From Candidatus Yonathbacteria bacterium (GTDB taxonomy: Bacteria; Patescibacteriota; Minisyncoccia; Phycocordibacterales; JACNGX01): DNA of 64,000 nucleotides. Location: assembly GCA_013334825.1 (NCBI GenBank), contig JAAXWR010000001.1:340731-404730 (forward strand), written 5' to 3'. The position numbers and the translations under genes are program-made. Positions within the stretch are counted from its first letter, which is position 1, and every line of letters starts with the position of its first letter. This document shows positions 18,650-42,526 of the stretch, piece after piece. Under the pieces are notes generated by a model that had not been told where the DNA came from, searched no databases, and saw only the letters and a list, made by a program, of their open reading frames with translations.

Positions 18650-20976
<2,327 letters not shown>

Positions 20977-20989
20977 GATGTTGTCGAGT

Positions 20990-21340
20990 TGATGAGTTTC
21001 AAGTTGTCAGTTGCAAGAACGGTTACGAAGATTACGAATAACGAATGTATACAAATATACGAATATGACTTCTTTATTTTTATCATTTATAGTTTTCTCT
21101 TCCCATATTTCTCTTTTCTTATTTCATCGTCTATCGTTTATAGCTTTCGTCTTCATATTTCTTATTTCATCGTCTATAGTTTTCTTCTTCATTCGTATAT
21201 TCGTACGTATTCGTTATTCGTATGTTCATATTTCATCATTCGTCTTTCGTATTCTTGCTTCATACTTCGTGATTCGTGCTTCGAGCGTCTGTCCCTATCA
21301 CCTATAACCTCTCTCCTACATTCATCCCTCCCATCTTCTC
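20990..21340. repeat. Mosaic intergenic repeat cluster between atpA and atpG
   Basis: Modules GGTTACGAAG, TACGAATAACGAATGTATAC and CGTATATTCGTACGTATTCGTTATTCGTA (in inverted orientation), and GTCCCTATCACCTATAACC. Confidence 0.85.
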
Positions 21341-22881
21341 TAACCTCTTTCCTCTAACCTCTCTCCTGCATGCATCTTCAGAAGTTCACGAAGTCTTGTC
21401 TCAATATGTTCACTGAATGCACCTTCTTTCTTCATGGTCACAAGGATATCCGCATCTACCGTATGAATATATGAAAGAAGTGCATGTTCTGCTTTTCTTA
21501 CATCGTCTACGGCAATATCAGAAAAATATCCTTCAAGAAGAGCAAAAAAGATAAGTGCTTGTTCTTCATCGGCAAGTGGCGCGTATTGGTCTTGTTTCAA
21601 AATTTCCATGAGACGTTTGCCATGCTCAATACGTGTTCGTGTATCGTCATCGATATCCGAACCAAACTGTGCGAACGCAGCGAGTTCACGATATTGTGCC
21701 GCTTCAAGACGCATTTTACCCGCAACTTTTTTCATAAGTTTTGTTTGCGCGGAAGAACCGACACGTGACACTGAAAGTCCTGCATTGATGGCGGGACGCA
21801 TTCCTTGATGAAAGAGATCAGTCTCTAAATAAATCTGTCCATCAGTAATGGAAATAACGTTTGTCGGAATATATGCCGAAACATCACCTGCTTGTGTTTC
21901 AATAATAGGCAGTGCAGTGATAGAGCCACCGCCATGTGATGGGTCAAGACGACAGGCACGCTCAAGAAGTCGCGAGTGAAGATAAAACACATCACCTGGA
22001 TATGCCTCACGACCTGGTGGACGACGCAAAAGAAGTGACAATTCGCGATACGCCACAGCGTGCTTGGACAAATCATCGTATACCACAAGTACATCTCCCC
22101 CATTGTCGAGCATGTATTCAGCCATAGCGGTACCTGCATATGGCGCGATATAAGAAAGTGACGCAGGGTCAGATGCTCCCGCAAGAACAACTATTGTATA
22201 TGCCATGGCACCGTGTTCTTCGAGTTTGGCAACAATGCCCGCGATTTTTGATTCTTTTTGCCCGATTGCGACGTATACACAAGTAACGCCTTTTCCTTTT
22301 TGATTGATGATGGCATCAATCGCAACAGCAGTTTTTCCTGTTTGACGATCACCAATGATAAGTTCACGTTGTCCACGTCCAATCGGGACCATAGCGTCAA
22401 TCGCTTTGATACCCGTATGGAGTGGCACGGATACTGATTTGCGCGCAATGACACCTGGAGCGATATGTTCTACGGGATAAGAAACTTCATGACGTATAGG
22501 ACATTTCCCGTCAAGCGGTCGTCCCATAGGGTCAATCACGCGCCCCACCAGTGCATCTCCTACAGGAACACGCAAGACTTCTCCAGTCCCCTCTACTAGG
22601 TCCCCTTCTTTTACATGTATAGATTCACCTAATATAATTGCACCTATAGCATCTCTTTCCAGATTCAAAATCATTGCAGGTGTTTCGTGTGTACCATTGA
22701 CTGATGAAATAATAATCATTTCAGACATGCGCGCATCAGGAAGACCTGAAACAGAAACAATGCCGTCTTTAACCGACTCCACAATACCAATGGAACGGTC
22801 CGTCGCCTCAAGAGAAACGCCAGCGATACGACGTTTCAAATCTTCAATAATGGCATCAGTTGTATGGAGAGAGTGTGACAT
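21340..22881 (-). CDS. atpA: F0F1 ATP synthase alpha subunit
   Basis: GDRQTGKT Walker A and alpha-subunit core. Confidence 0.97.
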
Positions 22882-22896
22882 GATAATAAATGAATA

Positions 22897-23301
22897 TTAA
22901 GCGTACAACGCATGACTCAGTGCGTTGAGACGAGTGCGTATCGTGGCATCAAGTATTCGGTGTTCGTAGGTAAGACGCATACCCCCAAGTGTATCGTGGT
23001 CAATTGTCTCAATGAGACGCACCGCGGATGATGCGGTACGTTCTTTCACATACGCAATAATATCGGTGCGCATTTCAGATGAAAGGGGTGTGCGAGAAAC
23101 GACACGCGCGGAGACAGTATGTGTACGTGTATCACAAAAGGATTGGAAGACAGAAAGTATCTCTTCGATACGATTTGTCATACCATCTATCACTAACACA
23201 TTCACAAATGCTGTAAGAATAGATGTATGCTCATCCACGTCACGTTCTGCAAGGAGTGCGTCAAGAGCAATTGCATAGTGTTGTGGTGTCATACGGGTCA
23301 T
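22897..23301 (-). CDS. atpH: F0F1 ATP synthase delta (OSCP) subunit
   Basis: Size, position and OSCP-like sequence. Confidence 0.85.
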   Translation of the reverse strand: MTRMTPQHYAIALDALLAERDVDEHTSILTAFVNVLVIDGMTNRIEEILSVFQSFCDTRTHTVSARVVSRTPLSSEMRTDIIAYVKERTASSAVRLIETIDHDTLGGMRLTYEHRILDATIRTRLNALSHALYA

Positions 23302-23807
23302 AGAGTGGAGTTGCGAGTATCCTCAAGAGCTTTTTGTATGAGCGTATTGTCTATAACAGAAGGTTCGCGCGTCGCAAGAATGCGTTCGAGTGCTTCTGTT
23401 ACAATCCCCGCTGCTTCGATACGCATGTGTTGACGAAAAAGTTCACGTTCTGATGCTTCGCGTTTACGTGCCTCCGCTCGTTCACGAACAAGTTCTTCAG
23501 TAAGCTCTTCCAGTGCTACAAGACGTTTTTTTTCACTATCTTCCTCTACACGCTCAAGAAGTTTCCGTGCCTCACTCTGCGCTTTAGCAAGTTGAGTAGT
23601 ATATTCCTCTTCAGCAGCATGAAGTTTTTTTGTCGCTTCTTCTGCTTCTTTGATACCCTTTTCTACCGAAGCGGTGCGTGCGTCAAGTACACGCATCAAA
23701 GGCTTGATCACAAAGAAGTAGAGTACAGCAAACACAACGGCAAAGTTAATTGCCTGTGCGATGAGCATGACAGTATCAATGTGAAATGACGCAACAAGAG
23801 GATTCAT
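23298..23807 (-). CDS. atpF: F0F1 ATP synthase b subunit
   Basis: N-terminal transmembrane helix plus a long charged coiled coil. Confidence 0.85.
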   Translation of the reverse strand: MNPLVASFHIDTVMLIAQAINFAVVFAVLYFFVIKPLMRVLDARTASVEKGIKEAEEATKKLHAAEEEYTTQLAKAQSEARKLLERVEEDSEKKRLVALEELTEELVRERAEARKREASERELFRQHMRIEAAGIVTEALERILATREPSVIDNTLIQKALEDTRNSTL

Positions 23808-23809
23808 GA

Positions 23810-24256
23810 GTAATGTATGATAGTAAATGACGAGTTCGTAGTTCGTAGAAATTGCTGGAGAGATAGTGTTGTCTGTTAATATGATGTTTACGAATAACGA
23901 ATACGTACGAATCTACGAATGATACATAACATGTGTAGAAGAAACTTTTTATTCGTATATTTGCACACATTCGTTATTCGTATGTTCATATTTCTTAATT
24001 CACTTTTTATATTCGTGATTCCCCGCACTGTGCACCATGTGGGATGCACAGTGCGCCATGTAGGGTGCGGGGCAGGCGTACAAGTTCGTACTTCGTAATC
24101 TTTCATCTCGTCCGTCTCTATAACCTATCACCTCTAACCTATTTCCTACTTTCATCATTCATCTTTTGTATTCTTGATTCGTGCTTCATGATTCTTGATT
24201 CGAGTGTCCGTCCCTATAACCTCTTTCCTACATTCGTCCGTCCCTATCTCCTATAA
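23810..24256. repeat. Mosaic intergenic repeat cluster between atpF and atpE, with two GC-rich hairpins
   Basis: GTTCGTAGTTCGTAG, TACGAATAACGAATACGTACGAA, hairpins CGCACTGTGCACC..TGCACAGTGCG and GGGTGCGGGGCAGG, and an inverted GTCCGTCCCTATAACC twice. Confidence 0.85.
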
Positions 24257-24475
<219 letters not shown>

Positions 24476-24517
24476 TCAATATGATGAATAAAGTGAATAA
24501 ATACTACAACCTCTTTT

Positions 24518-25417
24518 CTAGTGTTCTTCCATGGATGTATGCATAGAAAGATACGACAGCACCAATATAGCAAAGATAGTAGCTTGTATCAAACCAACAA
24601 ATACTTCAAGGAATAAAAATGGAATCGGCAACCCCCATGCGAGTATTGCTGACATTGATGCAAGAAGCACTTCACCAGCAAATACATTTCCAAAAAGACG
24701 GAATGAAAGGCTTGCGATTTTTGCCAATTCGCCAACAATTTCAACAAGACCAACAAATACATTGATTGGGTTTACGATAAGTACTGTCGGGTCGTTTCGC
24801 ACACGTTGAGGGATTTCAATAAGTGCTCGAATATTAATAAACTTATTGATATGGCGCCATGCACCAACAGCAAGGATGCCAAAGATATGGCTTGCGACAA
24901 CTGCAATCGTTGCCAGTGCAAGTGTGGTATTAAGGTCGGCACTTCCACCCCGAAGAAATGAAATAAATGTTTCATGTCCGCCCTCTGATACAGTCATACC
25001 AACAGAACCAACACCAGGAATAATACCTATCCAGTTGTTCAATAATATAAAAAGAAAGAGTGCAAAAATAAGCGGAAAAAACATGCGCGATTTTTGACGA
25101 CTCCCCGTTACTCCATCAGCAAGCTCAAGCGCTTGTTCAAATACAAGTTCAAAAAATGCCTGGAGACGTCCAGGGATATGTTTGAGAGATATGCGAATGA
25201 TAAGCGAGAGAACAATAATGCCAAGTACAACAATCCATGAAGAAAGAAGTGTATTGGTAATGACAACATCTCCCCAAGAGAAAATTGGTTCAGCATATAA
25301 GGTATGCGTATGCCCATGAGATAAAGTTTCTTCTGTGTGTGCTGACACGGAAACGGCCGTCTCAGAAACGGTCGTTGATAGTTCTTGCTGAATAGTTCCG
25401 GTTCCCAAAGGTTCCAT
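24518..25417 (-). CDS. atpB: F0F1 ATP synthase a subunit
   Basis: Conserved a-subunit region ...RLFGN..AG... The N-terminal extension is probably upstream of the true start. Confidence 0.92.
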   Translation of the reverse strand: MEPLGTGTIQQELSTTVSETAVSVSAHTEETLSHGHTHTLYAEPIFSWGDVVITNTLLSSWIVVLGIIVLSLIIRISLKHIPGRLQAFFELVFEQALELADGVTGSRQKSRMFFPLIFALFLFILLNNWIGIIPGVGSVGMTVSEGGHETFISFLRGGSADLNTTLALATIAVVASHIFGILAVGAWRHINKFINIRALIEIPQRVRNDPTVLIVNPINVFVGLVEIVGELAKIASLSFRLFGNVFAGEVLLASMSAILAWGLPIPFLFLEVFVGLIQATIFAILVLSYLSMHTSMEEH

Positions 25418-25427: not shown

Positions 25428-25661
25428 TTATATCATATCTGAGAGTTTTTTCATATCGTCTCTTGCTTTGTTTGCTTCGCGTATAATACCCGCGATTGAA
25501 ATGAAAAAACAGACAATAAGAGATATGAGAACTCCGTATGGTGTGGTAACAAAAAGCGTATCAATATAATGACCGAGAAAAAGCCCTCCTAAAACAGGCG
25601 CAACAATCCAACCGCTCATGCGTGCAAATGTGAGAAGTGCGACACGTGTTTCTGCTATCAT
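25428..25661 (-). CDS. atpZ: AtpZ/AtpI-like small membrane protein of the ATP synthase operon
   Basis: 77 aa with two transmembrane helices, immediately upstream of atpB. Confidence 0.65.
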   Translation of the reverse strand: MIAETRVALLTFARMSGWIVAPVLGGLFLGHYIDTLFVTTPYGVLISLIVCFFISIAGIIREANKARDDMKKLSDMI

Positions 25662-26206
25662 GCTGCAAGTTTCTTTTCAAATTCCTCAAGCTTCGAAACA
25701 ATTTCTGCGTATTCGATAAATGATCTACCGTATGAGGTAAATATACTACGGTATCGCTCTTCCATTTCTTCGGCAGATACAATTTCTCCGAGAGATTCAT
25801 ACATTGTAAGAGTGTCCTCTGCGTCATTTCGCGCCCCATCAATATTTGCGCCGATTGATGCAATGATTTTTGTCATTTCTTCAAAATTATCAAATATTTC
25901 TAATTGGCGGTCTTGCTCAGATTGGTTTATCCCTGTTTGTCCAAGAATATCTCCCTTCATCTGTGCAAGTACATACATACCCCTTTCAGAGAGTTCAGTT
26001 GCATGTTGTTTTGTTGATTCAAAACCATTTTCAAGTGTTTCCCTGACACGATTAAAGGTTTCTGGTTGTTTCAAGTCTTCATCGGGAAAACCACCTTCGG
26101 AAAAAGGGTCCATGGCGGTGAGTGTTTCTTCTTCACGAACGAACATGCCATGCGGGAAAAGTTTGTCGTCGTGTTCATTGTGTGGAAATGTATCGTGTGT
26201 GGACAT
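25658..26206 (-). CDS. Acidic hypothetical protein at the head of the ATP synthase operon
   Basis: 182 aa, Asp/Glu-rich. Its stop overlaps the atpZ start by 4 bp. Confidence 0.5.
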   Translation of the reverse strand: MSTHDTFPHNEHDDKLFPHGMFVREEETLTAMDPFSEGGFPDEDLKQPETFNRVRETLENGFESTKQHATELSERGMYVLAQMKGDILGQTGINQSEQDRQLEIFDNFEEMTKIIASIGANIDGARNDAEDTLTMYESLGEIVSAEEMEERYRSIFTSYGRSFIEYAEIVSKLEEFEKKLAA

Positions 26207-26742: not shown

Positions 26743-26975
26743 TGCCTTCGCTAGAGTCTCAATATTGCATGACAAAAATATTTAGAAGCTTCGGCAAGGT
26801 AAGACAGGCGGCAAGCAAAGCAACTGCTTGCTTTGCGACAGGAATCGAACCGAGCACCACTTTTGATATTGCAAAAGTGGTGCTCGACATCCAGCGATAC
26901 TTATAAAAATGCGAGTGCTCGGAGTATTTTTGTTAGTAATCGCGGGACGATTCCTGTGCCGCCCACCTGCCTTCG
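26743..26975 (+). mobile_element. Mini-element at the tRNA-Val 3' end, bounded by a 27-bp direct repeat of the tRNA 3' end
   Basis: DR gattcctgtgccgcccacctgccttcg occurs at 26724-26750 and 26949-26975. The interior holds an 11-bp-stem hairpin (gcaagcaaagc/gcttgctttgc), an inverted tRNA T-arm fragment (ggaatcgaacc), a 14-bp inverted repeat cgagcaccactttt/aaaagtggtgctcg, and CGGGAC immediately before DR2. Confidence 0.6.
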
Positions 26976-27106
26976 GTTCGCTGAAGCGAACCTACGGCGT
27001 GGCAAGCCCGCTTTTGTTTGTACATACAATTGCGAGTATAATGAAAATAATTATTGTACGCGAAAGCGACCTTCGGTTCGCTGAAGCGAACCTACAGTGT
27101 GACAAA

Positions 27107-27180
27107 CGGGATGTAGTACAGTGGTAGTATACACGCTTCGGGTGCGTGAGACCCGAGTTCGATTCTCGGCATCCCGACCA
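27107..27180 (+). tRNA. tRNA-Pro(CGG)
   Basis: CGGGATGTAGTACAGTGGTAGTATACACGCTTCGGGTGCGTGAGACCCGAGTTCGATTCTCGGCATCCCGACCA. Anticodon loop TTCGGGT with G37. Confidence 0.9.
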
Positions 27181-27182
27181 CA

Positions 27183-27226
27183 AAAAAGAAAACAGCACAC
27201 TAAAAAGTGTGCTGTTTTCTTTTTCT
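27183..27226. terminator. Bidirectional hairpin terminator
   Basis: aaaacagcacac-taaaaa-gtgtgctgtttt flanked by A and T runs. Confidence 0.8.
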
Positions 27227-27260
27227 CTACTGATATCAACTTATTTGAAACACTGAAAGA

Positions 27261-27635
27261 TCATATCCTTCCGTAATCATCTTCAAATCGTTCAATATCG
27301 TTCTCGTCAACATTACCTACGGATATTTCTCCAATAGTCGCATCAGTTATCGCGTAAATGCGATGTCGGGTTTCTCGCGGGACAAATATATGCTCACCTT
27401 TTTTCAGATGATATGCTTCCTCATCAAGCATAACGTCAACTTCTCCTTCGAGAACAACCCAGTGTTCGTCTCGTAAAAAATGTCGTTGCAAGGAAATACG
27501 CTCCCCACTCTTGATACAAAGTATTTTGACATGCCACACTCCATCAGCATCTGCCAAATCAGTGAACGAACCCCACGGGCGTTCATCGACAGAAGAAAGT
27601 GTTTTGAATATATGTGTAGACATAGGGTGTATCAT
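27261..27635 (-). CDS. Cupin-type mannose-6-phosphate isomerase (type II PMI cupin domain)
   Basis: ERPWGSFTDL...VKILCIKSGERISLQRHFLRDEHWVVLEGE...GEHIFVPRETRHRI matches the PMI/ManC C-terminal cupin signature. Confidence 0.75.
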   Translation of the reverse strand: MIHPMSTHIFKTLSSVDERPWGSFTDLADADGVWHVKILCIKSGERISLQRHFLRDEHWVVLEGEVDVMLDEEAYHLKKGEHIFVPRETRHRIYAITDATIGEISVGNVDENDIERFEDDYGRI

Positions 27636-27639
27636 ACTC

Positions 27640-28458
27640 TTACTTTTCTCTCTTGTCAGTATTGTTGAGAATACTGCGCAAGAGATCTTTTGTATCAGAC
27701 AAATCTTTTACAGGAAATGTTCGTACGCCCGACTTGATAACAGCCTCATCATTTCCCCCAGGATACAGAGCGTCTCCAATATACAGCATATCCTCAATTG
27801 CAATACCAGAAAAACGCGACAGATTTTTTATGGCGAATGCTTTATCAATGCCTTTGCGGGTAATATCAATAGACGTCATCCCTCCAGTACGTACTTCATA
27901 CAATGGAAGTTTTTTTCTTAAAGAATTAGTAATGGCAGGACGAATGTCAGACACTTTATTCCATTTCATCTTTTCAGAAATCGGTGCCTGTTGTCCAAGT
28001 GCGGAAAACGTTATTTGTGCATCTCTGTCTTCAAAGATATCACCATAGTGTTGCGCGGGCTGCACATACCCAATATCAATAAAAACCTCTTCAAATGCAT
28101 CCATAATTTCTTTTTTTTCTTCATCTGAAAAATTGTGACTATCAAGACATGACCATGTTCCTTCTATAAAACGATACAAGAGTGACCCTGAAACAGGAAC
28201 GAGCCACAGTCGACTGAATTGTTCTCTACAAGAAAGACGCGATACGATTTGTGTACTCATTTGCCCATAAGACGCGCCGGAAACGAGAGCAACATCGTAT
28301 TTGTGTAATGCTCCGCAGAGCAAAGAGTCCATTTCATCATCAAGGAGCATCTTACTTTTTGCTATTGTTCCATCGATATCAAACGCAAAGAGTTTGTACG
28401 CAGAAAAATCTATCGCGTCTTCTTTCTTTTTATTTTTTCGCATAAACATATTCATCAT
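27640..28458 (-). CDS. Eukaryote-type phosphomannomutase (HAD-IIB, PMM/Sec53 family)
   Basis: LFAFDIDGTIA ... GGMTSIDITRKGIDK ... YIGDALYPGGNDEAV match the PMM motifs DVDGT, SFDVFPEGWDK and GDKTxxGGNDxE. Confidence 0.7.
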   Translation of the reverse strand: MMNMFMRKNKKKEDAIDFSAYKLFAFDIDGTIAKSKMLLDDEMDSLLCGALHKYDVALVSGASYGQMSTQIVSRLSCREQFSRLWLVPVSGSLLYRFIEGTWSCLDSHNFSDEEKKEIMDAFEEVFIDIGYVQPAQHYGDIFEDRDAQITFSALGQQAPISEKMKWNKVSDIRPAITNSLRKKLPLYEVRTGGMTSIDITRKGIDKAFAIKNLSRFSGIAIEDMLYIGDALYPGGNDEAVIKSGVRTFPVKDLSDTKDLLRSILNNTDKREK

Positions 28459-28461
28459 ATC

Positions 28462-30396
28462 TTATATTTCACGACAAAGCGGTGATGAAAGTGCCGTAAG
28501 CAAATCATCAATGGCAATTGATGCGACATTGACCACTTTATCCGCTCCGCCATAATAAATAAACATCTTCCCATCATGAACAGTAGACCCACAAGGAAAG
28601 ACGACATTAGAAACAATACCTTCTAATTCATAGGATTCTTCCGGCTCAAAAATGGGATACCATGTGCGTGCGCGTATAATGGTTGGATCTTTTTTATCAA
28701 GAAGCACGGCACCAAGGCGATATACACCATCATGAGAAATACCATGATAGAGAAAAATCCATCCTTTTTCGGTCTTGTGGGGAGGAGCGACACCCCCAAC
28801 CTTCCGGCAGTCCCACCATCCCTTTCGCGGCTGTATCCATCGATATTCTTCAAGCCAGTCATCGTGCCCAAAAGAAAGACTTTCCCTCCACGCCAAATCA
28901 ATATCTAACCCACTTCGATGTACAACTAAATACTTACCTCCAATTTTTTCTGGAAAAACAAAAGCGTCTTTGTCATCAATACCAGGAGGAGAAATGAGGA
29001 TGGGTTCACTCCATGCTTGCCAATTGCGTGCGAGGAAATCTTTTTTCGATATTGATGTGAGTGCGATACGTGGTACAGACACACCGTCATACGCCGTGTA
29101 GTTCATATATATGGTGTTTCCAATCATTGAAAGACGTGGGTCTTCACATCCGGAGTTCCCCCCAGGGTTCCTCTTTTGTTCAAATGAAGCGCGCGGGGTA
29201 TAGATTGGTTCTGGAAGACGTTCCATGATATGAATACCATCTGTTGTTGTTGCATATCCCATAACCGATGTATTGTCTTCAGACATCGCTCGATATACCA
29301 AATGTGTCGTATCATCGATACGCAGCGCGGCGGGATTAAATGTTGCTTTTGACTCCCATGAGTGACTTAAAACAGGCTCAATGACTGGACGCGTACTTCG
29401 TCGTTTGAATACAATACGTTTTTCTTTTTTTGTAAGAATACTTTCAATAATATCATCAATGGATGCAGATGCGACAGCACAGACAGTATCAGCAGCGCCA
29501 TAATAGATGTCTACACGTTTTCCCTGTACCAATGCACCTGAAGGAAAGACAATATTGGGTACCATGCCGTATCGTTCATACGATTCTGAAGGAGACATGA
29601 GGGGAAACTCTGTCCGACCGATAATCTTGCGTGGGTCATTTATATCAAGAAGAATTGCTTCAACAGTAAAGAATGCATCCCCAATAAAATAATTACGGAT
29701 ATGCGAATAAAACACGAGCCATCCCTTATCTGTCTTCACTGGCGGAGCACCGACTTCTACATGGTCTTCATGGATATGGTTGGGGCGTTTAAACGCAAGG
29801 GTGTGTTTTTCTTTTTCTGCATACCATGTATGCCAATATGCTTCCGACAACATTTCATCTTCATTGTTAAACGAAGCAATACCAATAAACGAAGGACGAC
29901 GGTCAGTATCAACAGTAAGAAGCGCCCACAGTTTACCATTGATGCGTTCAGGAAAAAGGGTCATGCCTTTTGCATTAAAGGGTGTGACCAGATGTTTTTC
30001 ACGCACATGTTCAAGATTGTCAGAAATAGCAACGGCGGCTTTGATACCATCTGCACGAAATGGATATTCAGAAAGCGCCGTGTAAAAAATGTAATATTTC
30101 CCGTCGATATAGGTAACGCGCGGATCCTCACATCCAAAACGCTCCCATGGTTCTTCTGGAGTGATGAAGCGTTTTCTGTCAGAAAAATGATACCCGTCTG
30201 CACTTCGTGCAATACCAATTGTAGAAACATTGATATCGCTGTTCACGGGAAGTTGATAGTGTGGAAGCGACAGGGCGCGATACAACAAGAATGTCTCCTT
30301 ACCACACTTTATGGGGCAACCGTTGAATACAGCTTGTGCTTCCCACGAATGCTTTGCATCAGGAGAAAGAATGGGATTGTGTTCGGAACGTATCAT
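28462..30396 (-). CDS. Tandem double GH130 glycoside phosphorylase (beta-mannoside phosphorylase-like)
   Basis: Two repeats of the GH130 pattern NPIL..W..FN...YRA...IG.A.S.DG..F...P...E..GCEDPR....Y..Y.A, one per protein half (644 aa). Confidence 0.85.
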   Translation of the reverse strand: MIRSEHNPILSPDAKHSWEAQAVFNGCPIKCGKETFLLYRALSLPHYQLPVNSDINVSTIGIARSADGYHFSDRKRFITPEEPWERFGCEDPRVTYIDGKYYIFYTALSEYPFRADGIKAAVAISDNLEHVREKHLVTPFNAKGMTLFPERINGKLWALLTVDTDRRPSFIGIASFNNEDEMLSEAYWHTWYAEKEKHTLAFKRPNHIHEDHVEVGAPPVKTDKGWLVFYSHIRNYFIGDAFFTVEAILLDINDPRKIIGRTEFPLMSPSESYERYGMVPNIVFPSGALVQGKRVDIYYGAADTVCAVASASIDDIIESILTKKEKRIVFKRRSTRPVIEPVLSHSWESKATFNPAALRIDDTTHLVYRAMSEDNTSVMGYATTTDGIHIMERLPEPIYTPRASFEQKRNPGGNSGCEDPRLSMIGNTIYMNYTAYDGVSVPRIALTSISKKDFLARNWQAWSEPILISPPGIDDKDAFVFPEKIGGKYLVVHRSGLDIDLAWRESLSFGHDDWLEEYRWIQPRKGWWDCRKVGGVAPPHKTEKGWIFLYHGISHDGVYRLGAVLLDKKDPTIIRARTWYPIFEPEESYELEGIVSNVVFPCGSTVHDGKMFIYYGGADKVVNVASIAIDDLLTALSSPLCREI

Positions 30397-30444
30397 GAAT
30401 GAAATATAAAAAACGATAAACTAAAAAACGAAATGTCATACATA

Positions 30445-31917
30445 TTACATGGTTTTGCGTGCACGAATTTTTTTCTTTATCACAGTTTTCTTTTCAATCT
30501 TTGGGGTGGCATCCTTTCGTAAGTCATTCATAAATGATGCAAAATCAGCAGAGGCAACGCATACATAATTATCGGATGCTCCGTAATATACAAACAACGT
30601 ATCATCTTTCACAACCACCCCTGAGACATATACAATACCACCTTTCGCGCCGTTGTATTCATATTCTTCAGTTGGCTCAAGTACTGGACCAGAAGAACGA
30701 TGCAGGACTTTCGTCGGATCAAGTAAATCAAGAAGCATCACGCCCACTTTGTATTTCCATGGTTCATCGTGCGTAACCGCGTGATAAAAAACGAGCCATC
30801 CTTCATCTGTACGAATAGGTGGAGCCGCAGGTCCACGCACCCATGTGTCCCAAACACCTAAACGTTTTTCCATACGATATTTACTGGGAATATATATTTC
30901 ATCAGGAAACACAAGTGAATCGACATATTCAATGAGAATACCCGTATTGATACTGTGGAGAATTGCATACTTCCCTTTTATTTTCTCAGGAAAAATCATC
31001 CAATTTTTATGATATTCATACGGATGCGACATAATGGATGGTGTACTCCAATTCCATCTACGTTTTCGCACATCATCGATATGTATTGATGATATTGCCA
31101 TTTTAAGTCCCCCATCACACGCAGTGTACGTAAGGTAGAGATGATTGTCTTCGGGGATATACACAACACGAGGATCTTCTGCACCCGCCCATCCTCCGCC
31201 AGAAGCAAAAGCGACTGGATTCATGCGAAACGGTTGTAATGTCGCATGTTCAAATACAGGAACGTCAGAACGTTCATCAATTGTATATCCATCAAGAGAA
31301 ACCGCATGCCCCACACGTGATTGTCCATCAGCACCCATGGCGCGATAAAACAGATGTACTTTTCCATCAATAAGAACAGAACCAGGATTGAATGTCTGCC
31401 ATGATTCCCATACGTGTTCTTCACGAGGAAGAATAATAGGATTTGACTCATGTCGTTCAAGTCGATTGAGTAGAGGGTTTTTCTCTGGTTGCGTGGGTTT
31501 TTTTCTTGTAAGAACCTTTCGAGCAAGAGGCACATTCTTTGTATCTGTCTTTTTTTGTTTTGATAATTGCAGTACTGATTTTTTCGGAGAAATTGTTTTG
31601 GTATAAGGAACGGATGTTCGTAAGGTAAGGACGTCACGCGCAGGCGTCTTTTTTTCAGAAAGCTTCTTTTTAAGAGAAACCTGTGGAGGTGTTTTCTTTT
31701 TGCGCGGAACAATCGGAACAAGAATGCGTCGTTGGCGTAAAGATTTCATCTCTTTCGATTGCACATAAGGTGTCATATTCTTTTTTACGTTATCGCGTTC
31801 ATTTTCTTTCAATCCACGTTGTGTATTTGTAGAAAGAAACTGGGTTGTCTTTTTCCTACTCCCCCGTGAAGCGGGAGAAGAAGATGAAGAACCAGTTGCG
31901 CGGGGCGCAGATGCCAT
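30445..31917 (-). CDS. GH130 glycoside phosphorylase with an approximately 170-aa K/R/S/T/P-rich N-terminal low-complexity extension
   Basis: C-terminal 320 aa match GH130 (NPIILPREEHVWESWQTFNPG...GAEDPRVVYI...). The N-terminus is basic and disordered. Confidence 0.8.
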   Translation of the reverse strand: MASAPRATGSSSSSPASRGSRKKTTQFLSTNTQRGLKENERDNVKKNMTPYVQSKEMKSLRQRRILVPIVPRKKKTPPQVSLKKKLSEKKTPARDVLTLRTSVPYTKTISPKKSVLQLSKQKKTDTKNVPLARKVLTRKKPTQPEKNPLLNRLERHESNPIILPREEHVWESWQTFNPGSVLIDGKVHLFYRAMGADGQSRVGHAVSLDGYTIDERSDVPVFEHATLQPFRMNPVAFASGGGWAGAEDPRVVYIPEDNHLYLTYTACDGGLKMAISSIHIDDVRKRRWNWSTPSIMSHPYEYHKNWMIFPEKIKGKYAILHSINTGILIEYVDSLVFPDEIYIPSKYRMEKRLGVWDTWVRGPAAPPIRTDEGWLVFYHAVTHDEPWKYKVGVMLLDLLDPTKVLHRSSGPVLEPTEEYEYNGAKGGIVYVSGVVVKDDTLFVYYGASDNYVCVASADFASFMNDLRKDATPKIEKKTVIKKKIRARKTM

Positions 31918-32046
31918 AGATGTTTACAGTATACAACAAAAACATTTTTTCTTTTTCTTATTTCATATGTGGAAAACTTTTTCTTTTAACGCAAGATGGA
32001 CAGAGAGTCATTTTCCTGATTAAATAGAGTGTATTCACAAGAATAA

Positions 32047-32120
32047 CGGGCTATCGTACAGTGGTAGTATGCATCCATGGGGTGGATGTGGCAGCGGTTC
32101 GATTCCGCTTAGCCCGACCA
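32047..32120 (+). tRNA. tRNA-Pro(GGG)
   Basis: CGGGCTATCGTACAGTGGTAGTATGCATCCATGGGGTGGATGTGGCAGCGGTTCGATTCCGCTTAGCCCGACCA. Anticodon loop ATGGGGT with G37. Confidence 0.85.
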
Positions 32121-32187
32121 TTCGACTTCGTTCGGCTTCAAGAAATGAAGCCTCACTCCGCTCATGGTCTTCGACCTTTTTTACCAG

Positions 32188-32502
32188 ATGAATAGGGTTT
32201 CTCTTGAAAAGCCGAATGGAGTCGAATGCCCTGAGCCTGTCGAAGGGCTTTACTATGTTTACTTACTTCTTTGCTGTGACGAAAGCTTATACTGTGGGTC
32301 AACAAAAAATCTCAAGAACCGCACAAAAGAACATAATTCTGGCGAAGGAGCGGCGTGGACTAAAAGACGCCGCCCGGTAAAATTAATATATTACGAAACG
32401 TATGATTCACTTATTTCAGCTCGTCGTCGTGAAAGACAAATAAAAGGATGGACAATTCAAAAAAAATTTAATCTAATAAACGGTATTTGGCAGAAATTAT
32501 AA
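32188..32502 (+). CDS. GIY-YIG nuclease family protein (YhbQ/UPF0213-like), second copy
   Basis: GLYYVYLLLCCDESLYCGSTKNLKNRTKEHNSGEGAAWTKRRRPVKLIYYETYDSLISARRRERQIKGW. The start may be 32164 or 32188. It lies 45-70 nt downstream of tRNA-Pro(GGG). Confidence 0.75.
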   Translation: MNRVSLEKPNGVECPEPVEGLYYVYLLLCCDESLYCGSTKNLKNRTKEHNSGEGAAWTKRRRPVKLIYYETYDSLISARRRERQIKGWTIQKKFNLINGIWQKL

Positions 32503-36783: not shown

Positions 36784-38010
36784 CTAGCGAAGCGCACCCT
36801 TGCGCTGTTTGCGTCTAAACGCGCCAATAGCAAAACGATGGGCTTCGGCATTCACTGCAATAATATCTTTCTCATATGTTCGCACAATCTTTTCGTCTCC
36901 CAATAGTTCTCGCGCTTTGTGTCGGTCATCTTTCACCACTGATACCACGGGTATCATGACCCCCGCTTGAGCAAGCACATGCTCCGCGCGACGCAGTTGA
37001 TTGTTCCCTCCATCAATCACAATCAGCTCTGGATATGTCCATTCTGCATGTGCAAGCCGACGCGAAAGCGTTTCTTCAAGACCCGCAAGGTCATCTCCCC
37101 CTTTAGTATTACGAAGCGTGAACATCCGATATGCTTCTTTTTTTTCTTCTCCCCCACTACGGACGACCATTACCCCCGTCGCATGAGACCCTCCTAAATG
37201 CGCAACATCGTATCCTTCGATGCGAAACGCATCATGCTCAGTACCATCGTCTCGTTTCATGAGTGCGATATCTTGAATATGTTTGAGATTGTGCAAGGTA
37301 CGCTTGATACGCGACGCCTCTTCAAACAATTCTTTACGCGCATACGTTGCCATTTCTTTTTCTAAATGTGTGATCAATGTGTTTTTCTTTCCCCCGAGAA
37401 AAAGCTCAAGCCGTTTAATATGCGCGCGATACGCTCGTGCAGATAATTCACCTGAACATACTCCAGGGCATAAACCAATTTGTCTATTGAAACAAGGTTT
37501 ACTCGATGTATCTGTCGATGGATTGCACGTGTCACGAAATGGAAATATCTTGCGTATGATTTTAAGTGCGTCTCGAAGTACTCCTCCACGGGGAAAGGGA
37601 CCAAACATGGAACGCACATCATCAGAACCCCCAGGGGCAACAAGATCGCGTTCACGTCGCAAAAGCACGCGCGGATACTTCTCGTCAGTAATAACAATAT
37701 AATAAAAACTTTTGTCACTCTTTTCTTTTGTATTGTATATCGGTTGATACTTTTTAATAAGCACTGCTTCACGGATGAGCGCCTCGAGTACGGAATCCGT
37801 TTCTTCATAGGTAATAGACCTTGCTTCTTCGACCATCTTTACAATGAGTGGTCCACGTGAAGTAATCACATCCCCATTGAAATAACTTCGCACCCGATCA
37901 CGAAGCGACGTCGCTTTTCCCACATAGATAATCTTCCCTTTCTTATCACGAAAGAGATAGACACCGGGGGTTGCCGGTAATGTGATTTTGTGTACGTCGT
38001 CTTTTGTCAT
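36784..38010 (-). CDS. uvrC: Excinuclease ABC subunit C, compact form lacking the C-terminal (HhH)2 domain
   Basis: N-terminal GIY-YIG (GVYLFRDKKGKIIYVGKATSLRDR), a UVR domain, and the RNase H-like endonuclease region (IEGYDVAH...IDGG...EAHRFAI). It is 408 aa versus about 600 aa typical. Confidence 0.88.
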   Translation of the reverse strand: MTKDDVHKITLPATPGVYLFRDKKGKIIYVGKATSLRDRVRSYFNGDVITSRGPLIVKMVEEARSITYEETDSVLEALIREAVLIKKYQPIYNTKEKSDKSFYYIVITDEKYPRVLLRRERDLVAPGGSDDVRSMFGPFPRGGVLRDALKIIRKIFPFRDTCNPSTDTSSKPCFNRQIGLCPGVCSGELSARAYRAHIKRLELFLGGKKNTLITHLEKEMATYARKELFEEASRIKRTLHNLKHIQDIALMKRDDGTEHDAFRIEGYDVAHLGGSHATGVMVVRSGGEEKKEAYRMFTLRNTKGGDDLAGLEETLSRRLAHAEWTYPELIVIDGGNNQLRRAEHVLAQAGVMIPVVSVVKDDRHKARELLGDEKIVRTYEKDIIAVNAEAHRFAIGAFRRKQRKGALR

Positions 38011-38211
38011 GCTGACATGATTATTTCCAAAAATTTTTGTCTAGAAATCCTAAACAAATCCAAATATATTCAGAAGATTCAAATTTGAACATATATATGT
38101 ATTCACTATGGAATACAGGATGACACAACCGCGCATAATTTACAATACCATTATCATATGGTAAGGTACTGACAGTTTTGACAGTTCTCCAACAGATAAA
38201 CACTTTGCCAC

Positions 38212-38694
38212 ATGAACGACATCATGGAATCCATTCTCGGCGTCATCCTCGCACCCATCAATGCTGCGTGTATCATGATATCTACCGCAGCAAAACTTCC
38301 CGTCACACTCTTCATTGCACGAGATTATAATCATGAGGAGACGGTTCAGCGAAGAGGTCACGAACACACCAAAAGTTATCCTTATGATACTGTTTGGGAT
38401 TATGTCTTCTATATGATAGACCAAGCAAATGCAACAGGCAGGCGCATACGATATGTCTTTTTAGATATCACTATATATGCCAGTCCTTCAACTGACAAAA
38501 AAGAGGTCCATCGCATAGTACAGAAATTCTATGCTGACTCAAAAAGACGGGATGAAAAAATTCGGATACAAAACAGTATTGTCAATTTTTTCTTCCCTCG
38601 CCCGAAACGGCGCTCCAATGATATTTTTATTACGGTAAGAGAATTTGAACGTCTTATGTGGCCCACGCCTATTTCTGGTTGGGGGTATCCATAA
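38212..38694 (+). CDS. Hypothetical protein
   Basis: ORF track. Confidence 0.4.
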   Translation: MNDIMESILGVILAPINAACIMISTAAKLPVTLFIARDYNHEETVQRRGHEHTKSYPYDTVWDYVFYMIDQANATGRRIRYVFLDITIYASPSTDKKEVHRIVQKFYADSKRRDEKIRIQNSIVNFFFPRPKRRSNDIFITVREFERLMWPTPISGWGYP

Positions 38695-38809
38695 TGCACA
38701 CGAGCCACACACGTGGCTCTTTTGTTTGTATAAATTTACAATATGCATAAGATATGCTACCGTGACAAAAGTTTCAAGCACTTTTTCCAATTCATAAACT
38801 CATAAAAAT

Positions 38810-39283
38810 ATGAACCCGTTTAGTGAACTTTTCTTTCTGGGTATCACCACGCCGATTCGCCTTGTGTGCGATGTCGTGTCTGGTATCACAGAAGGTATTT
38901 CCTGGCATCTTGCCACAGAAATCGCACATATTCCGCATTGTGAGATTCCGAGCGACGTTATACCGACCATCTCATGTGCGTATCGCATTGGTCGTCCTGT
39001 GAAAGTTATCGCGGAAAGTGTCACTGGTCCAGTGCACCTTGTTGTCCGTCCAAACGACTGGATAGAAACCGTCTTTCGACGGTTTAAAAAGAAAGAAGTT
39101 CTTCGTATTGCTACATGGAAAAATCTGTTCCGTGGTCAAGAGACCTCGATAAAAAATCATCTTATTTGCGTGAGTCAAACTCACTTAAAGCTTTTTAGGG
39201 AAACAATTACACGACCACGTGGTATATATGACACACCTCGTGTTACCGATGAAGAACGTGTTCTTTTTCTTGAGAACACATAA
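38810..39283 (+). CDS. Hypothetical protein
   Basis: ORF track. A terminator follows at 39292-39316. Confidence 0.4.
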   Translation: MNPFSELFFLGITTPIRLVCDVVSGITEGISWHLATEIAHIPHCEIPSDVIPTISCAYRIGRPVKVIAESVTGPVHLVVRPNDWIETVFRRFKKKEVLRIATWKNLFRGQETSIKNHLICVSQTHLKLFRETITRPRGIYDTPRVTDEERVLFLENT

Positions 39284-39291
39284 GCACTTTA

Positions 39292-39316
39292 AGCGCCGTC
39301 CATCGGCGTTTTTTGT
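39292..39316 (+). terminator. Rho-independent terminator
   Basis: gcgccg-tccat-cggcgt followed by T6. Confidence 0.65.
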
Positions 39317-39329
39317 TTGGCAATATTTT

Positions 39330-39450
39330 ATTGGCTACGAAGTACGAACGAGTACGAACATACGAACATAAACTCACCAATATAATTATTTGTGTCCAGT
39401 TGTCTTCGTATGTTCGTATAAGTTCGTACTTCGTAGCCCCATATTGTTAA
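39330..39450. repeat. Approximately 120-bp inverted-repeat module of the TACGAA repeat family
   Basis: ggctacgaagtacgaacgagtacgaacatacgaac ... gttcgtatgttcgtataagttcgtacttcgtagcc. Confidence 0.8.
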
Positions 39451-39468
39451 TTTCTAAATTCTAATTTC

Positions 39469-42099
39469 TCACTTATTTTCCTTTTTTATTTTTTTCTTCA
39501 ACTCCTTCCTCAAATACCGTCCCGTATGCGATGCATCACTATCTGCTACCTCCTCCGGCGTACCTTTGGCAACCACATTACCTCCGCCGTCTCCACCTTC
39601 TGGACCCATGTCAATGAGATAATCAGCATTCTTGATGATGTCCATATTGTGCTCAATGGTAATTACTGTATTTCCACGTTTTACCAATTCATCGAGAATA
39701 CCAATCAACTTGCGCACGTCTTCATAATGAAGTCCCACTGTCGGCTCATCCAACAAATACACCGTTTTCTCCAAATGCGGACGATACAGTTCTGAAGATA
39801 TTTTTACACGCTGCGCTTCTCCTCCCGACAACGTCGTTGCTGATTGTCCCAACTCCAAATACCCAAGACCGACCTCAACAAGTGTTTTCAAACGGTCATG
39901 AATGGCAGGAATGTCTTTGAAAAATGTATCGGCTTCTTCAATCGTCATGGAAAGTACGTCATGAATACTCTTCTTTTTATATTTCACCTCCAATGTTTCT
40001 TTGTCAAAACGCTTACTCCCACACACATCACACGTCACATAGACCGTTGGTAAAAAATGCATCTCTACCGCGATAAGACCGTTCCCTTCACATGTCTCAC
40101 ATCGTCCACCACCCCGCGCCGCAGGCACATTAAATGAAAAACGTCCTGACTTCCACCCACGCACACGTGCTTCAGCAGTCGCGGCAAACAAATCCCGAAT
40201 ATGGGTAAATGCTCCCGTATATGTTGCAGGGTTAGAACGTGGTGTACGACCAATCGGCGATTGGTCAATGAGAATCGTGCGTCCTACATATTCTGTCCCC
40301 GAAAATGACGCGCAATTATACACATCATTACTACGGTATTTTTTTTCCAGACGCGCGCGCAAATTCTGATACAATATTTCGTGCATCAATGATGACTTTC
40401 CAGAACCAGATACTCCCGTAATCGCCACAAATTTCCCAAGCGGAACATCAATATTGAGATTCTTGATATTAAATACATTTCCGCCACGTATCTTGAGTGA
40501 CCCTTTATCTTGCATACGTCGTTTTTCAGGGACAGAAATAAGTTTTTCTCCGCGCAAATACCCGAGCGTCTCAGAACCCGATTCATTTGTTTTGGCAGAT
40601 AAAAGTTTTTTCAATTCACCCGACACAACAACAGTACCACCGTGCGTCCCAGCACCCGGACCAATATCTACTAAATAATCTGAAGAAAAAATTGTATCTT
40701 CATCATGTTCCACGACAATAATCGTATTACCCAAGTCACGGAGATGCGTCAGCGTTTTAATAAGACGTTCATTATCACGTTGATGAAGTCCAATCGTTGG
40801 CTCATCGAGTACATAGAGTGCGCCGACAAGACGACTCCCCAGCTGTGATGCCAAACGAATACGCTGTGATTCACCACCTGAAAGCGTATTCGCGCGACGG
40901 TCAAGTGTCAGATAATCGAGCCCGACATCCAAAAGAAATTGCAAACGATTTTCTATCTCCTTGAGGACTACTTTGGCAACTTCTTGTTCTCGTTTGGATA
41001 ATTTGAGTTCAATGAAAAAGTCTGCCACGTCCCGTATAGACATGGCAACAAGCTCGACAATGTTTGGACCACGTTTCTCTCCTTTGCTTGTTGTCGTATC
41101 ACCCAAGGTAACGTGGAGTGCCTCTTGTCGCAGACGCGCACCTTTACAATCGGGACATGGTTCTGTGCCGAACATATATTTTGTTCCCAAACCATTACAT
41201 GTCGGGCATGCGCCATAGGGTGAATTGAACGAAAAGAGACGAGGTTCAATCTCTGGGTATGAAAATCCATCATGCGGACATGCAAATGTCGCGGATAATA
41301 ATGTTACCTCTTCACCAATACGAATACGTACCGAGCCGTCCGATTCATTGAGCGCTCGTTCTACTGATTCTGCCAAACGTTCGCGCGCCATCTTTGGATC
41401 TGCTTCAAAATCAAGAAGATCAATGGCATCTACAATGACATCGATATCATGTTTGGCAGTTTTTTTGAGAACAATTTGTTCACGAAGACTTTTCTTTTCT
41501 CCATTGACACGAACAGCAGCATATCCTTTGTTGAGCAGGTCATACAAAAGTTGGTAATATTCTCCTTTGCGTCCACGCACGACAGGAGACGCAATCTCTA
41601 CATCATGCGACACATATGGCACACCAAGAACGCTTTTTGCGTTTTTCTTTGCTTCTGTTCCTGCTTCCTTTACACGCTTCATAACAAAGGCGACAATTTC
41701 TTCATTTGAAAGACGTTCAATCACTCGTCCACACACCAAACAATGTGGCTTTCCTACACGTGCGTATAACACACGAAGATAGTCATAAATCTCGGTGATA
41801 GTCGCGACAGTCGAGCGAGGATTATTGGAACGGCTTTTTTGATCAATGGAAATCGCGGGAGAAAGTCCGACAATTTCATCCACATCCGGCTTTTGCATTT
41901 GACGCAAAAACTGTCGAGCATACGCAGAAAGTGACTCCACATAGCGACGTTGTCCTTCAGCAAAAATAGTATCGAATGCGAGCGATGATTTGCCCGAACC
42001 AGAAAGTCCCGTAAAGACGACCATCTTGTTGCGTGGCATCTCTACGGTAATATTTTTGAGATTGTGGGTGCGAGCACCTTTTACAATAATTGAGTCCAT
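39469..42099 (-). CDS. uvrA: Excinuclease ABC subunit A
   Basis: Two ABC ATPase modules ([25 protein letters not shown] signatures) and zinc-finger cysteines. 876 aa. Confidence 0.97.
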
Positions 42100-42260: not shown

Positions 42261-42526
42261 CTGCGGGGTAAAAATTTGAAACAAAAATCAAGAGCCGGAA
42301 GAAAGGATTAAAATAAACTGCAACATAGTCCACGTATTCTTGATTCGTGATTTGTTATTCTTGCTTCCTGTTTGCACGCCGACTGCCCGCGCGAACGTCG
42401 CACGGGTTTGTGTATCTCCAGTATAGCGGAAAGGAGAGAAAAAAGAAGTGTTGACTTTATTTATAAAACATGATATACAAAAACCTGTTCATTTTGTTCT
42501 TCTTCAAAATCAAAACGTAAAAAGCC

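Follow-up and report, generated by a model that had tools for sequence, protein, structure and literature searches.

We analysed a 64,000-nucleotide stretch of the genome of a Candidatus Yonathbacteria bacterium from the Patescibacteriota (GenBank assembly GCA_013334825.1, contig JAAXWR010000001.1, positions 340,731 to 404,730; hereafter the window), with a focus on four genes, G1 to G4, that encode three GH130 modules, a HAD-type mutase and a cupin. These genes are the Yonathbacteria version of a cluster that is conserved among Patescibacteria. In the reading we favour, to which we give about an even chance, the cluster would convert cytoplasmic beta-1,2-mannosides to alpha-mannose-1-phosphate (Man-1-P), mannose-6-phosphate (Man-6-P) and finally fructose-6-phosphate (Fru-6-P) without spending ATP.

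All four genes lie on the minus strand. G1 (30445-31917) encodes a GH130 protein of 490 amino acids (aa) with a disordered basic N-terminal extension, and G2 (28462-30396) a double GH130 protein of 644 aa. G3 (27640-28458) encodes a 272-aa HAD-IIB phosphohexomutase of the phosphomannomutase (PMM)/alpha-phosphoglucomutase (alpha-PGM) clade, predicted to be a phosphomannomutase, and G4 (27261-27635) a 124-aa stand-alone type-II cupin, predicted to be a mannose-6-phosphate isomerase (PMI). The gaps between the genes measure 48, 3 and 4 bp from G1 to G4, in agreement with the four co-directional reading frames and the tight spacing of 2-49 bp that an earlier note on this DNA had described. None of the four proteins contains a hydrophobic stretch (maximal Kyte-Doolittle mean over 19 residues at most 1.25) and their N-termini are polar; the GH130 proteins are predicted to be cytoplasmic and to lack a signal peptide.

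Both large proteins belong to GH130. G2 matched Pfam Glyco_hydro_130 in two stretches (1.5e-96, 323 bits against a cutoff of 26), and its AlphaFold2 (AF2) model comprised two propellers (predicted local distance difference test, pLDDT, 91.6; predicted template modelling score 0.82). G1 matched the same family (PF04041) over aa 144-465 (1.1e-37, 130 bits against 26), and its best PDB match was 7FIP, the beta-1,2-mannobiose phosphorylase Teth514_1789 (1.2e-38). Foldseek aligned the G2 model to 9FJ8, 9GPH and 7FIP with template modelling (TM) scores of 0.88-0.91; Teth514_1788 (9FJ8) ranked first, with a TM of 0.90 at 37% identity. The three modules are 36-40% identical to one another and to Teth514_1788.

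The residues that govern catalysis and linkage in GH130 are known in UhgbMP numbering (Li et al., PMC7660257). Asp104 is the proton donor, Arg168 and His231 are phosphate ligands, and the +1 subsite comprises Arg59 and Asp304 together with two positions that depend on linkage, namely 103 (Tyr in beta-1,4, Glu in beta-1,2 or beta-1,3 enzymes) and 150 (Lys in beta-1,2 enzymes). In GH130 hydrolases the Arg/His pair is missing and a carboxylate serves as base instead (PMC7660257). We rebuilt the Teth514_1788 reference sequence from HMMER output and aligned it to two orthologue sets, one made of the best database matches (121 G1-type, 118 G2-type) and an independent one from species-representative genomes (64 G1-type, 79 G2-type). 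Arg59, Glu103, Asp104, Lys150 and Asp304 were conserved to at least 99% in all three modules and in both sets. The catalytic Asp, which lies within an EDPR motif, was invariant in 121, 118 and 118 orthologues of G1, module 1 and module 2 of G2, and in 64, 79 and 79 of the second set. Glu103 was invariant throughout, and Lys150 deviated in a single one of the 121 G1 orthologues. Since these diagnostic residues are near-invariant, all three modules should be capable of catalysis and accommodate two mannose units joined by a beta-1,2 bond.

Further comparisons point to the same linkage. The Tyr/Arg +1 pair of beta-1,4-acting enzymes is absent from every module, each of which has Glu/Lys instead. 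The nearest solved enzymes all act on beta-1,2 bonds, namely Teth514_1788 (9FJ8), Teth514_1789 (7FIP), Lin0857 and Uhgb_MS, and beta-1,4 GH130 enzymes appeared as distant matches only (1e-22 to 1e-10). The best NCBIfam models were those of beta-1,2-mannobiose phosphorylases, with scores of 420 for G2 and 185 for G1 against a cutoff of 450. We infer that the substrate of the cluster is beta-1,2-linked mannose. The mannans or N-glycans that the earlier note had suggested are not supported, as both the specificity residues and the nearest enzymes are of the beta-1,2 and not the beta-1,4 type. With the pathways built around beta-1,4 GH130 enzymes (BfMGP, RaMP1/2, UhgbMP, BT1033), the cluster shares the family, the phosphorolytic logic and the Man-1-P product. 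However, those enzymes carry Tyr/Arg at +1 and are accompanied by epimerases, transporters and secreted mannanases, whereas here the pair is Glu/Lys and such partners are not present.

The three modules differ at the phosphate site. Arg168 and His231 were fully retained only in module 2 of G2, each in 118 of 118 orthologues and in 79 of 79 of the second set, and therefore only one of the three modules appears to be a canonical phosphorylase. The earlier note had counted three phosphorylase domains; family and catalytic Asp are indeed common to all three, but the phosphate-binding pair is confined to module 2. This module (28462-29421, minus strand, aa 326-644) has Arg369, Glu418, Asp419, Lys476, His493-Arg494, His551, Tyr559-Arg560 and Asp619 as key residues and scored 183 bits against Teth514_1788 (9FJ8). 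Its diagnostic residues were at least 99% conserved in both orthologue sets, except for the second Arg (Arg242ms; 116 of 118 and 68 of 79). Judged by these residues, module 2 is probably a canonical inverting beta-1,2-mannoside phosphorylase. It would split a beta-1,2-mannoside with phosphate and release alpha-Man-1-P, the first step of the proposed route.

Teth514_1788 and Teth514_1789 of Thermoanaerobacter X-514 are the best matches in both sequence and structure (37-40% identity, TM 0.90). They share the Glu/Lys beta-1,2 signature and the cytoplasmic location with the Yonathbacteria proteins, neighbouring GH130 genes are likewise found in their locus, and their phosphate-site residues are the same as in module 2. 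Unlike the proteins described here, both are single-module canonical phosphorylases; in the window two modules are fused and two of the three lack the phosphate site.

Module 1 of G2 (29422-30396, minus strand, aa 1-325) is a GH130 propeller with intact sugar subsites, a catalytic Asp91 and a degenerate phosphate site. The His231 position is taken by Ser231, the second Arg by Gly, Thr or Ser (Thr here), the Tyr by Phe and the Arg168 position by Thr-Asp. In one alignment register Arg168 falls on Thr164; HMMER can shift the register such that TDRR meets HRR. We rejected the basic residue of TDRR as a conserved phosphate ligand, because a basic residue follows Thr-Asp in only about 73% of the pattern-matching orthologues. 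Three acidic residues are invariant within the family: Asp165, close to the Arg168 position, Glu214 and Glu246. Because the phosphate ligands are lost and invariant acidic residues have been gained, module 1 looks hydrolase-like. Like G1, it would bind the same -1/+1 mannose pair as module 2 and keeps the catalytic Asp; it may well hydrolyse its substrate, given the acidic residues where phosphate should sit.

For comparison we turned to BT3780, in which Glu268 is the more important of two candidate bases and a carboxylate clashes with the phosphate position. A module 1 fragment that begins at Val213 aligned Glu214 to position 258 of the NCBIfam profile of the BT3780 family. By offsets, Glu268 of BT3780 corresponds to position 258 or 259, which places Glu214 within one position of it in profile coordinates, not in structure. 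An equivalent of Glu227 was not located in module 1, as short fragments around Asp165 gave no match to the BT3780-family profile. Since this second base could not be mapped, we regard the chances that module 1 is an independently evolved hydrolase as evenly balanced. BT3780 and BACOVA_03624, beta-1,2-mannosidases of subfamily GH130_3 from Bacteroides, resemble module 1 in several respects. Both types retain the +1 Arg and the Glu/Lys pair along with the catalytic Asp and are devoid of basic phosphate ligands, and carboxylates occupy, or in module 1 seem to occupy, the phosphate pocket. In contrast to module 1, which is predicted to be cytoplasmic and is fused to a phosphorylase module, the Bacteroides enzymes are secreted, monomeric and single-module, and they belong to yeast-mannan utilisation loci. 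Module 1 is also nearer to GH130_6 (1e-40) than to GH130_3 (1e-15) in sequence, and any hydrolase character would therefore have arisen independently.

G1 presents a third type of phosphate site. Its GH130 beta-propeller domain (30508-31467, minus strand, about aa 151-470 by HMMER alignment to 7FIP) is all-beta and was modelled by AF2 with pLDDT mostly above 85 over aa 150-470. Arg168 is replaced by Ser in 114 of 121 orthologues and by Ser, Asn, Ala or Thr in 58 of the 64 orthologues of the second set; the second Arg is replaced by Lys, and the His is retained. In profile coordinates, a Gly stands where BT3780 has Glu268 both in phosphorylases, module 2 of G2 among them, and in G1, and G1 lacks a catalytic-base Glu. 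G1 is thus unlikely to be a canonical phosphorylase. Its activity might be that of a weak phosphorylase, of a transferase using another donor, or of some other kind. We did not retain the firmer claim that G1 is a transferase since its Arg is absent. In Uhgb_MS, replacement of the equivalent Arg by Ala (R202A) abolishes transferase activity, while phosphorylase activity falls 16-fold, so that loss of the Arg does not predict a transferase. For GT108 enzymes the Arg is necessary but not sufficient for phosphorolysis, and the GT-only Leishmania members (MTPs) have His at this switch position, where G1 has Ser.

The N-terminal extension of G1 (31468-31917, minus strand, aa 1-150) was delimited by composition, alignment and AF2. 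It is rich in K, S, T, P and R, has a pI of 11.5 and is predicted to be disordered, with pLDDT below 50 over residues 1-143. An alignment with the relatives P0122-P0126 revealed the conserved motif RQRR-ILVPIVPRKKK. Relatives that are 68-90% identical retain the extension in less conserved form and share the motif RQRR-(I/V)LVP(I/M)VPRK, and an open frame of 150 codons ahead of the domain has a chance probability of about 7e-5, given the composition. Most G1 orthologues measure 360-390 aa and lack the extension. It is real and lineage-specific. The earlier description of a basic, low-complexity K/R/P/S/T-rich extension was correct in kind, but the length is about 150 aa instead of about 170. 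At the other end of the protein, aa 471-490 (30448-30507) form a second short basic tail (KIEKKTVIKKKIRARKTM) of low model confidence that mirrors the N-extension. In NCBI, the Candidatus Yonathbacteria protein HGB03_01730 matches G1 with 100% identity.

G3 matched the PMM family PF03332 with 43 bits against a cutoff of 22.4, whereas the Cof model remained far below its cutoff (35 against 137 bits). All 17 of its PDB matches were PMMs or the PMM-like alpha-PGM, and its placement in the PMM/alpha-PGM clade and not with Cof or sucrose-phosphate phosphatases was thus confirmed. G3 contains DIDGT at aa 27 and GDALYPGGNDEA at aa 228. The eukaryote-type PMM motifs proposed for it, DxDGT and GDxxxxGGNDxE, hold in the first case; the second reads GGNDEA, not GGNDxE. 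With PgmH of L. lactis (4BND) and with PMM1/PMM2, G3 shares the HAD-IIB C2B-cap family PF03332, the motifs DxDxT and GDxxxxGGND and a similar length. It is nearer to PgmH, an alpha-PGM and its best solved relative (3e-33), than to any PMM (1e-14 to 1e-5). Sequence cannot separate mannose from glucose specificity in this group. We favour mannose phosphates as the substrates of G3 because HAD-GH130 and HAD-cupin fusions occur in relatives, because the gene lies in a GH130 cluster and because a classical phosphoglucomutase (PGM)/PMM can take its place after the cupin. G3 would then turn Man-1-P into Man-6-P.

G4 matched Pfam MannoseP_isomer (PF01050) with 81.5 bits against a cutoff of 23.6 (6.8e-23) and positions 361-467 of TIGR01479, the model of bifunctional guanylyltransferase/PMI (GMP/PMI) enzymes (5.5e-21). 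ERPWG is found at aa 18 and SLQRHFLRDEHW at aa 48, in accordance with the type-II PMI signature that had been reported for this cupin. The motifs RPWG, SLQxHxxRxExW, a C-terminal His (His91) and DxYxR are common to 32 orthologues, among which Pro20, Trp21, Gly22, Gln50, Glu57 and His91 are invariant and His52 is near-invariant (at least 90%). With the PMI domain of AlgA/ManC-type bifunctional enzymes, G4 shares RPWG, SLQxHxxRxEHW and DDIxRxxDxYGR; it differs in that it consists of the 124-aa domain alone, whereas those enzymes have a guanylyltransferase half. PDB searches with the single sequence and with a 32-sequence profile returned generic cupins only (about 1e-7 with the profile). G4 is predicted to be a mannose-6-phosphate isomerase that turns Man-6-P into Fru-6-P, at no cost of ATP for the whole route; as no close relative has been solved, the stand-alone PMI activity is deduced from family and motifs. 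We know of no demonstration of PMI activity for a stand-alone cupin of this form.

The earlier note had named three findings that would speak against such a route: assignment of the mutase to another HAD subfamily, of the cupin to a non-PMI group, or loss of the GH130 residues. None of these was found outright, and the catalytic Asp is present in all modules. The Pfam E-values lie well outside what chance would produce.

The cluster is widespread. When each species was represented by a single genome, a relative of the double GH130 protein turned up in at least 549 genomes, mostly of Patescibacteria. Nearly all of the best 120 G2 matches measure 634-690 aa; they are 56-62% identical and come from many Patescibacteria lineages, and three are fusions of 971-1110 aa. 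In 2018, no more than six multi-modular GH130 sequences were on record in CAZy (PMC7660257). The double GH130 protein had been called unusual, but with relatives in at least 549 species genomes it is the normal form in Patescibacteria.

Gene neighbourhoods were counted in the 79 best loci with an intact G2-type reading frame. A G1-type gene lies directly 5' of the G2-type gene on the same strand in 74 of them. About 36 loci have an adjoining cupin gene and about 21 an adjoining HAD mutase gene, always on the same strand; the gene orders include G3-G4-G1-G2, G1-G2-G4, G4-G1-G2-G3 and G1-G2-G3. Fusion proteins in relatives join the same functions: HAD with a G1-type GH130 (P0238), HAD with the PMI cupin (P0258), and three GH130 modules in one protein of 996-1110 aa (P0006, P0022), some genomes having fused G1 and G2 into a three-propeller protein. 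In Moranbacteria-type loci, the gene 5' of the double GH130 is itself 610-680 aa long with two GH130 stretches, giving four modules in a row; such double-G1 genes are found at L035 7903-9759, L070 9104-11002 and nine similar loci. In four loci (L032-L034, L044), a classical PGM/PMM replaces the HAD mutase directly after the cupin, which it overlaps by 13 nt.

These data bear on the simplest alternative, namely that the genes are merely neighbours, with a HAD protein that is a general alpha-PGM and a cupin that is no PMI, neither sharing a pathway with the GH130 genes. The alpha-PGM of L. lactis as best solved match of G3 is compatible with that idea, as is the lack of a solved type-II PMI domain for comparison with the cupin. 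Against it stand the same-strand adjacency in dozens of species with varying gene order and, for the cupin, the PF01050 score of 81.5 bits together with the RPWG, SLQxH and DxYGR motifs common to bifunctional GMP/PMI enzymes. Because HAD-GH130 and HAD-cupin fusions exist, we consider mere co-location highly improbable. The functional link between GH130, mutase and cupin that the earlier note had drawn is thus strongly backed by conserved synteny and by fusion proteins.

The GH130 pair also occurs in database records labelled as archaeal (Woesearchaeota, 'archaeon', Bathyarchaeota; L012, L032-L034, L042, L044), and some related records bear a DPANN label. One of these, L012, has a RuBisCO large subunit 9 kb from the pair. 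An archaeal origin of these loci was not confirmed, as the domains of the neighbouring genes are non-diagnostic, and the label stands as given.

About a quarter of the loci contain a further partner. A cytidylyltransferase-like protein of 155-180 aa is contiguous in 17-19 of the 79 loci; its best model is RfaE domain II (manno-heptose-1-phosphate adenylyltransferase), with a score below the cutoff. One such neighbour is L067 6962-7459. In 14 of the best 120 HAD homologues (among P0247-P0291), the HAD mutase carries an RfaE-II-like domain of this kind as a fusion. Such fusions lie at L011 12233-13510 and L025 12220-13530, and in 15-17 other loci a separate gene stands at the head of the cluster. 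A homology search of the window found no counterpart. Since this nucleotidyltransferase recurs beside the cluster and fused to the HAD mutase, the pattern suggests that many lineages also channel Man-1-P into a nucleotide sugar.

This partner opens the view that the cluster runs an internal reserve cycle similar to mannogen metabolism. Cupin and mutase would then make Man-1-P from Fru-6-P, often followed by nucleoside diphosphate mannose (NDP-mannose) through the cytidylyltransferase-like enzyme. G1 would build a cytoplasmic beta-1,2-mannan or oligomannoside from NDP-mannose or Man-1-P, module 2 would recover Man-1-P, and module 1 would trim or prime; the three differentiated modules suit such a split between synthesis, degradation and trimming. 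The contiguous and fused nucleotidyltransferases are in line with this cycle, as are the retention of the cluster in at least 549 reduced genomes without an accompanying transporter or secreted enzyme, the rarity of beta-1,2-mannans, and the presence of two modules that do not look phosphorolytic. Beta-1,2 GH130 phosphorylases moreover have weak GDP-mannose transferase activity, with an active site common to the GT108 mannogen enzymes (PMC12814180), and the G2 model remotely matched the Leishmania GT108 enzymes MTP4 and MTP2 (Foldseek, TM about 0.62). The Leishmania enzymes MTP1-7 resemble the cluster in their five-bladed propeller, the active-site layout, the beta-1,2-mannan chemistry, a Man-1-P hub and the fact that several paralogues differ at the phosphate-site Arg position. 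However, the resemblance is remote (TM about 0.62, about 15% identity), and neither a GDP-mannose-forming gene nor a nucleotidyltransferase homologue is present in the window. The Arg-to-Ala exchange in Uhgb_MS, with transferase activity abolished and phosphorylase activity down 16-fold, also argues against the cycle, the GH130 transferase activity possibly has no physiological role according to the authors who described it (PMC12814180), and there is no report of a beta-1,2-mannan in these organisms. Taken together, we regard a reserve cycle as possible, if doubtful. Its general form, in which Patescibacteria and possibly DPANN archaea hold a self-contained beta-1,2-mannan or oligomannoside reserve made up of a G1 synthase or primer, a hydrolase-like trimmer and a phosphorylase, connected to Fru-6-P by the mutase and the cupin and often also by a Man-1-P nucleotidyltransferase, seems to us rather unlikely.

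The same nucleotidyltransferases, adjacent to or fused with HAD in relatives, could alternatively serve a salvage of activated mannose. Imported beta-1,2-mannosides would be converted to Man-1-P and mainly to NDP-mannose for envelope glycans, and mutase and cupin would merely balance the Man-1-P pool against Fru-6-P. This is modelled on the closest characterised enzymes, those of Thermoanaerobacter. Their locus encodes an ABC transporter, a GH5 enzyme, a Man-1-P guanylyltransferase and a GT4 mannosyltransferase, without PMM or PMI, and a salvage role was proposed there (PMC4264767). Here, in contrast, the GH130 genes are joined by the HAD mutase and the cupin PMI, and a Thermoanaerobacter-type transporter, GH5, guanylyltransferase or GT4 was found neither in the window nor among the recurrent flanks of the 79 loci. 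Among the partners the cupin recurs most often, and this speaks for a flow of carbon into or out of Fru-6-P. We therefore judge predominant salvage to be quite improbable.

Family memberships, residue patterns, synteny and fusions are direct observations, whereas the substrate, the net catabolic direction and the roles of G1 and module 1 are deduced. Several observations weigh against the catabolic route to Fru-6-P that we favour. All NCBIfam equivalog scores lie under their cutoffs. Two of the three GH130 modules lack a full phosphate site, and a purely phosphorolytic route has no need of them. The closest solved relative of G3 is an alpha-phosphoglucomutase; L. lactis PgmH is reported to be glucose-specific. 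The RfaE-II-like partner in 17-19 of 79 loci and in 14 of 120 HAD homologues points to an anabolic outlet for Man-1-P. A transporter, secreted endo-mannanase or hexokinase for mannosides was found neither in the window nor as a recurrent gene in the 79 loci, so that no supply of cytoplasmic beta-1,2-mannosides is apparent; beta-1,2-mannans are, in addition, rare in the environment (PMC4264767). Of the ATP-free catabolic route to Fru-6-P that the earlier note had outlined, the domain assignments hold, whereas a purely catabolic direction is not established, given the missing transporter and the nucleotidyltransferase-like gene that a quarter of related loci add.

The enzyme families are individually known, and a route from GH130 through PMM to PMI is an obvious combination. 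In the literature that we searched, the cluster was not described for the Candidate Phyla Radiation; in one paper on a Microgenomates genome, two GH130 genes that lack signal peptides are noted. Three features appear to be undescribed in this literature: GH130 modules that have diverged into a fixed trio, a hydrolase-like module naturally fused to a phosphorylase, and the persistence of the cluster in hundreds of reduced genomes. Patescibacteria have tiny genomes and few recognisable sugar pathways, yet hundreds of species retain these genes. Many Patescibacteria are considered to lack sugar kinases. A route into hexose phosphates by phosphorolysis, or a modest internal reserve of mannosides, would take a central place in how these organisms gain or buffer carbon and energy. 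If the cluster serves a reserve, no earlier cycle of a storage carbohydrate would have been proposed for such ultra-small symbionts, and it would include the first GH130 module with a mainly synthetic role. The three active sites form a natural series around the same beta-1,2-mannobiose unit with differing phosphate pockets: a full phosphate site in module 2, carboxylates in module 1 and, in G1, a key Arg lost without a base gained. They offer a test bed for phosphorylase versus hydrolase versus transferase chemistry in GH130 and GT108, and all four proteins are small and soluble and hence amenable to recombinant work.

The signals around the cluster are consistent with a transcription unit that is closed at its 3' end. 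An intrinsic terminator on the minus strand (27182-27225), 3' of G4, consists of a perfect 20-bp hairpin followed by a U-run, with flanking T/A runs. RNA folding of the 3' intergenic region gave -32.1 kcal/mol for the hairpin (z = -5.7), and none of 200 shuffled sequences folded as well. Because the hairpin abuts the convergent tRNA-Pro(CGG) gene, it is probably bidirectional. At the other end, the promoter presumably sits in the 5' intergenic region (31918-32046, minus strand) between the divergent tRNA-Pro(GGG) gene and the start of G1. A TATACT hexamer stands 12 nt 5' of the G1 ATG; no clear Shine-Dalgarno sequence was seen ahead of G1 when 31918-32046 was read. A consensus scan of 26900-32300 for promoters and terminators gave counts no higher than expected from shuffled sequence.

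Two tRNA-Pro genes on the opposite strand bracket the cluster, at 27107-27180 (CGG, convergent) and 32047-32120 (GGG, divergent). We considered a genomic island between them and rejected it. The GC content of the cluster (0.418) matches that of the window (0.430), the two tRNAs are distinct isoacceptors, and a Yonathbacteria relative with a double GH130 that is 80% identical carries all four genes in an unchanged order and with unchanged flanks. Given the window-like GC content and the conserved order and flanks, the cluster is stable chromosomal content.

Downstream on the same strand follow tRNA genes, a 182-aa open reading frame (ORF), an F-type ATP synthase operon (18650-25417), a SulP transporter, and then enolase and the phosphoglycerate mutase iPGM. 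The cupin had been thought to feed adjacent glycolytic genes. Enolase and iPGM do not start until 11.3 kb downstream of the cluster, with three tRNA genes among the intervening genes, and 'adjacent' is therefore an overstatement. The iPGM ORF (13086-14861, 591 aa with a TTG start) shares about 240 nt with the enolase ORF (14620-15948). As the Pfam match of iPGM begins only at residue 93, its translation probably starts further downstream than listed. The acidic 182-aa ORF between the cluster and the ATP synthase operon (25658-26206) has no Pfam match, and an ORF of the same size is found at the equivalent place in the Yonathbacteria relative (L085 12293-12841). A family scan of the 44 larger ORFs of the window revealed no sugar transporter, kinase or glycosyltransferase.

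Elsewhere in the window, a small GIY-YIG protein (32164-32502) adjoins the tRNA-Pro(GGG) gene, and a complete set of uvrC, uvrA and uvrB lies on the minus strand at 36784-44924. Most ORFs of 150-500 aa within 1-12600 lack a Pfam family, for example 10471-11964 (497 aa), which is typical of Patescibacteria. Beyond 13 kb most genes are on the minus strand. Up to about 16 kb the window has a positive GC skew, and from about 24 kb onward the skew is clearly negative; this change of sign at about 16-24 kb could mark a replication terminus or origin region, or could simply be an effect of strand bias.

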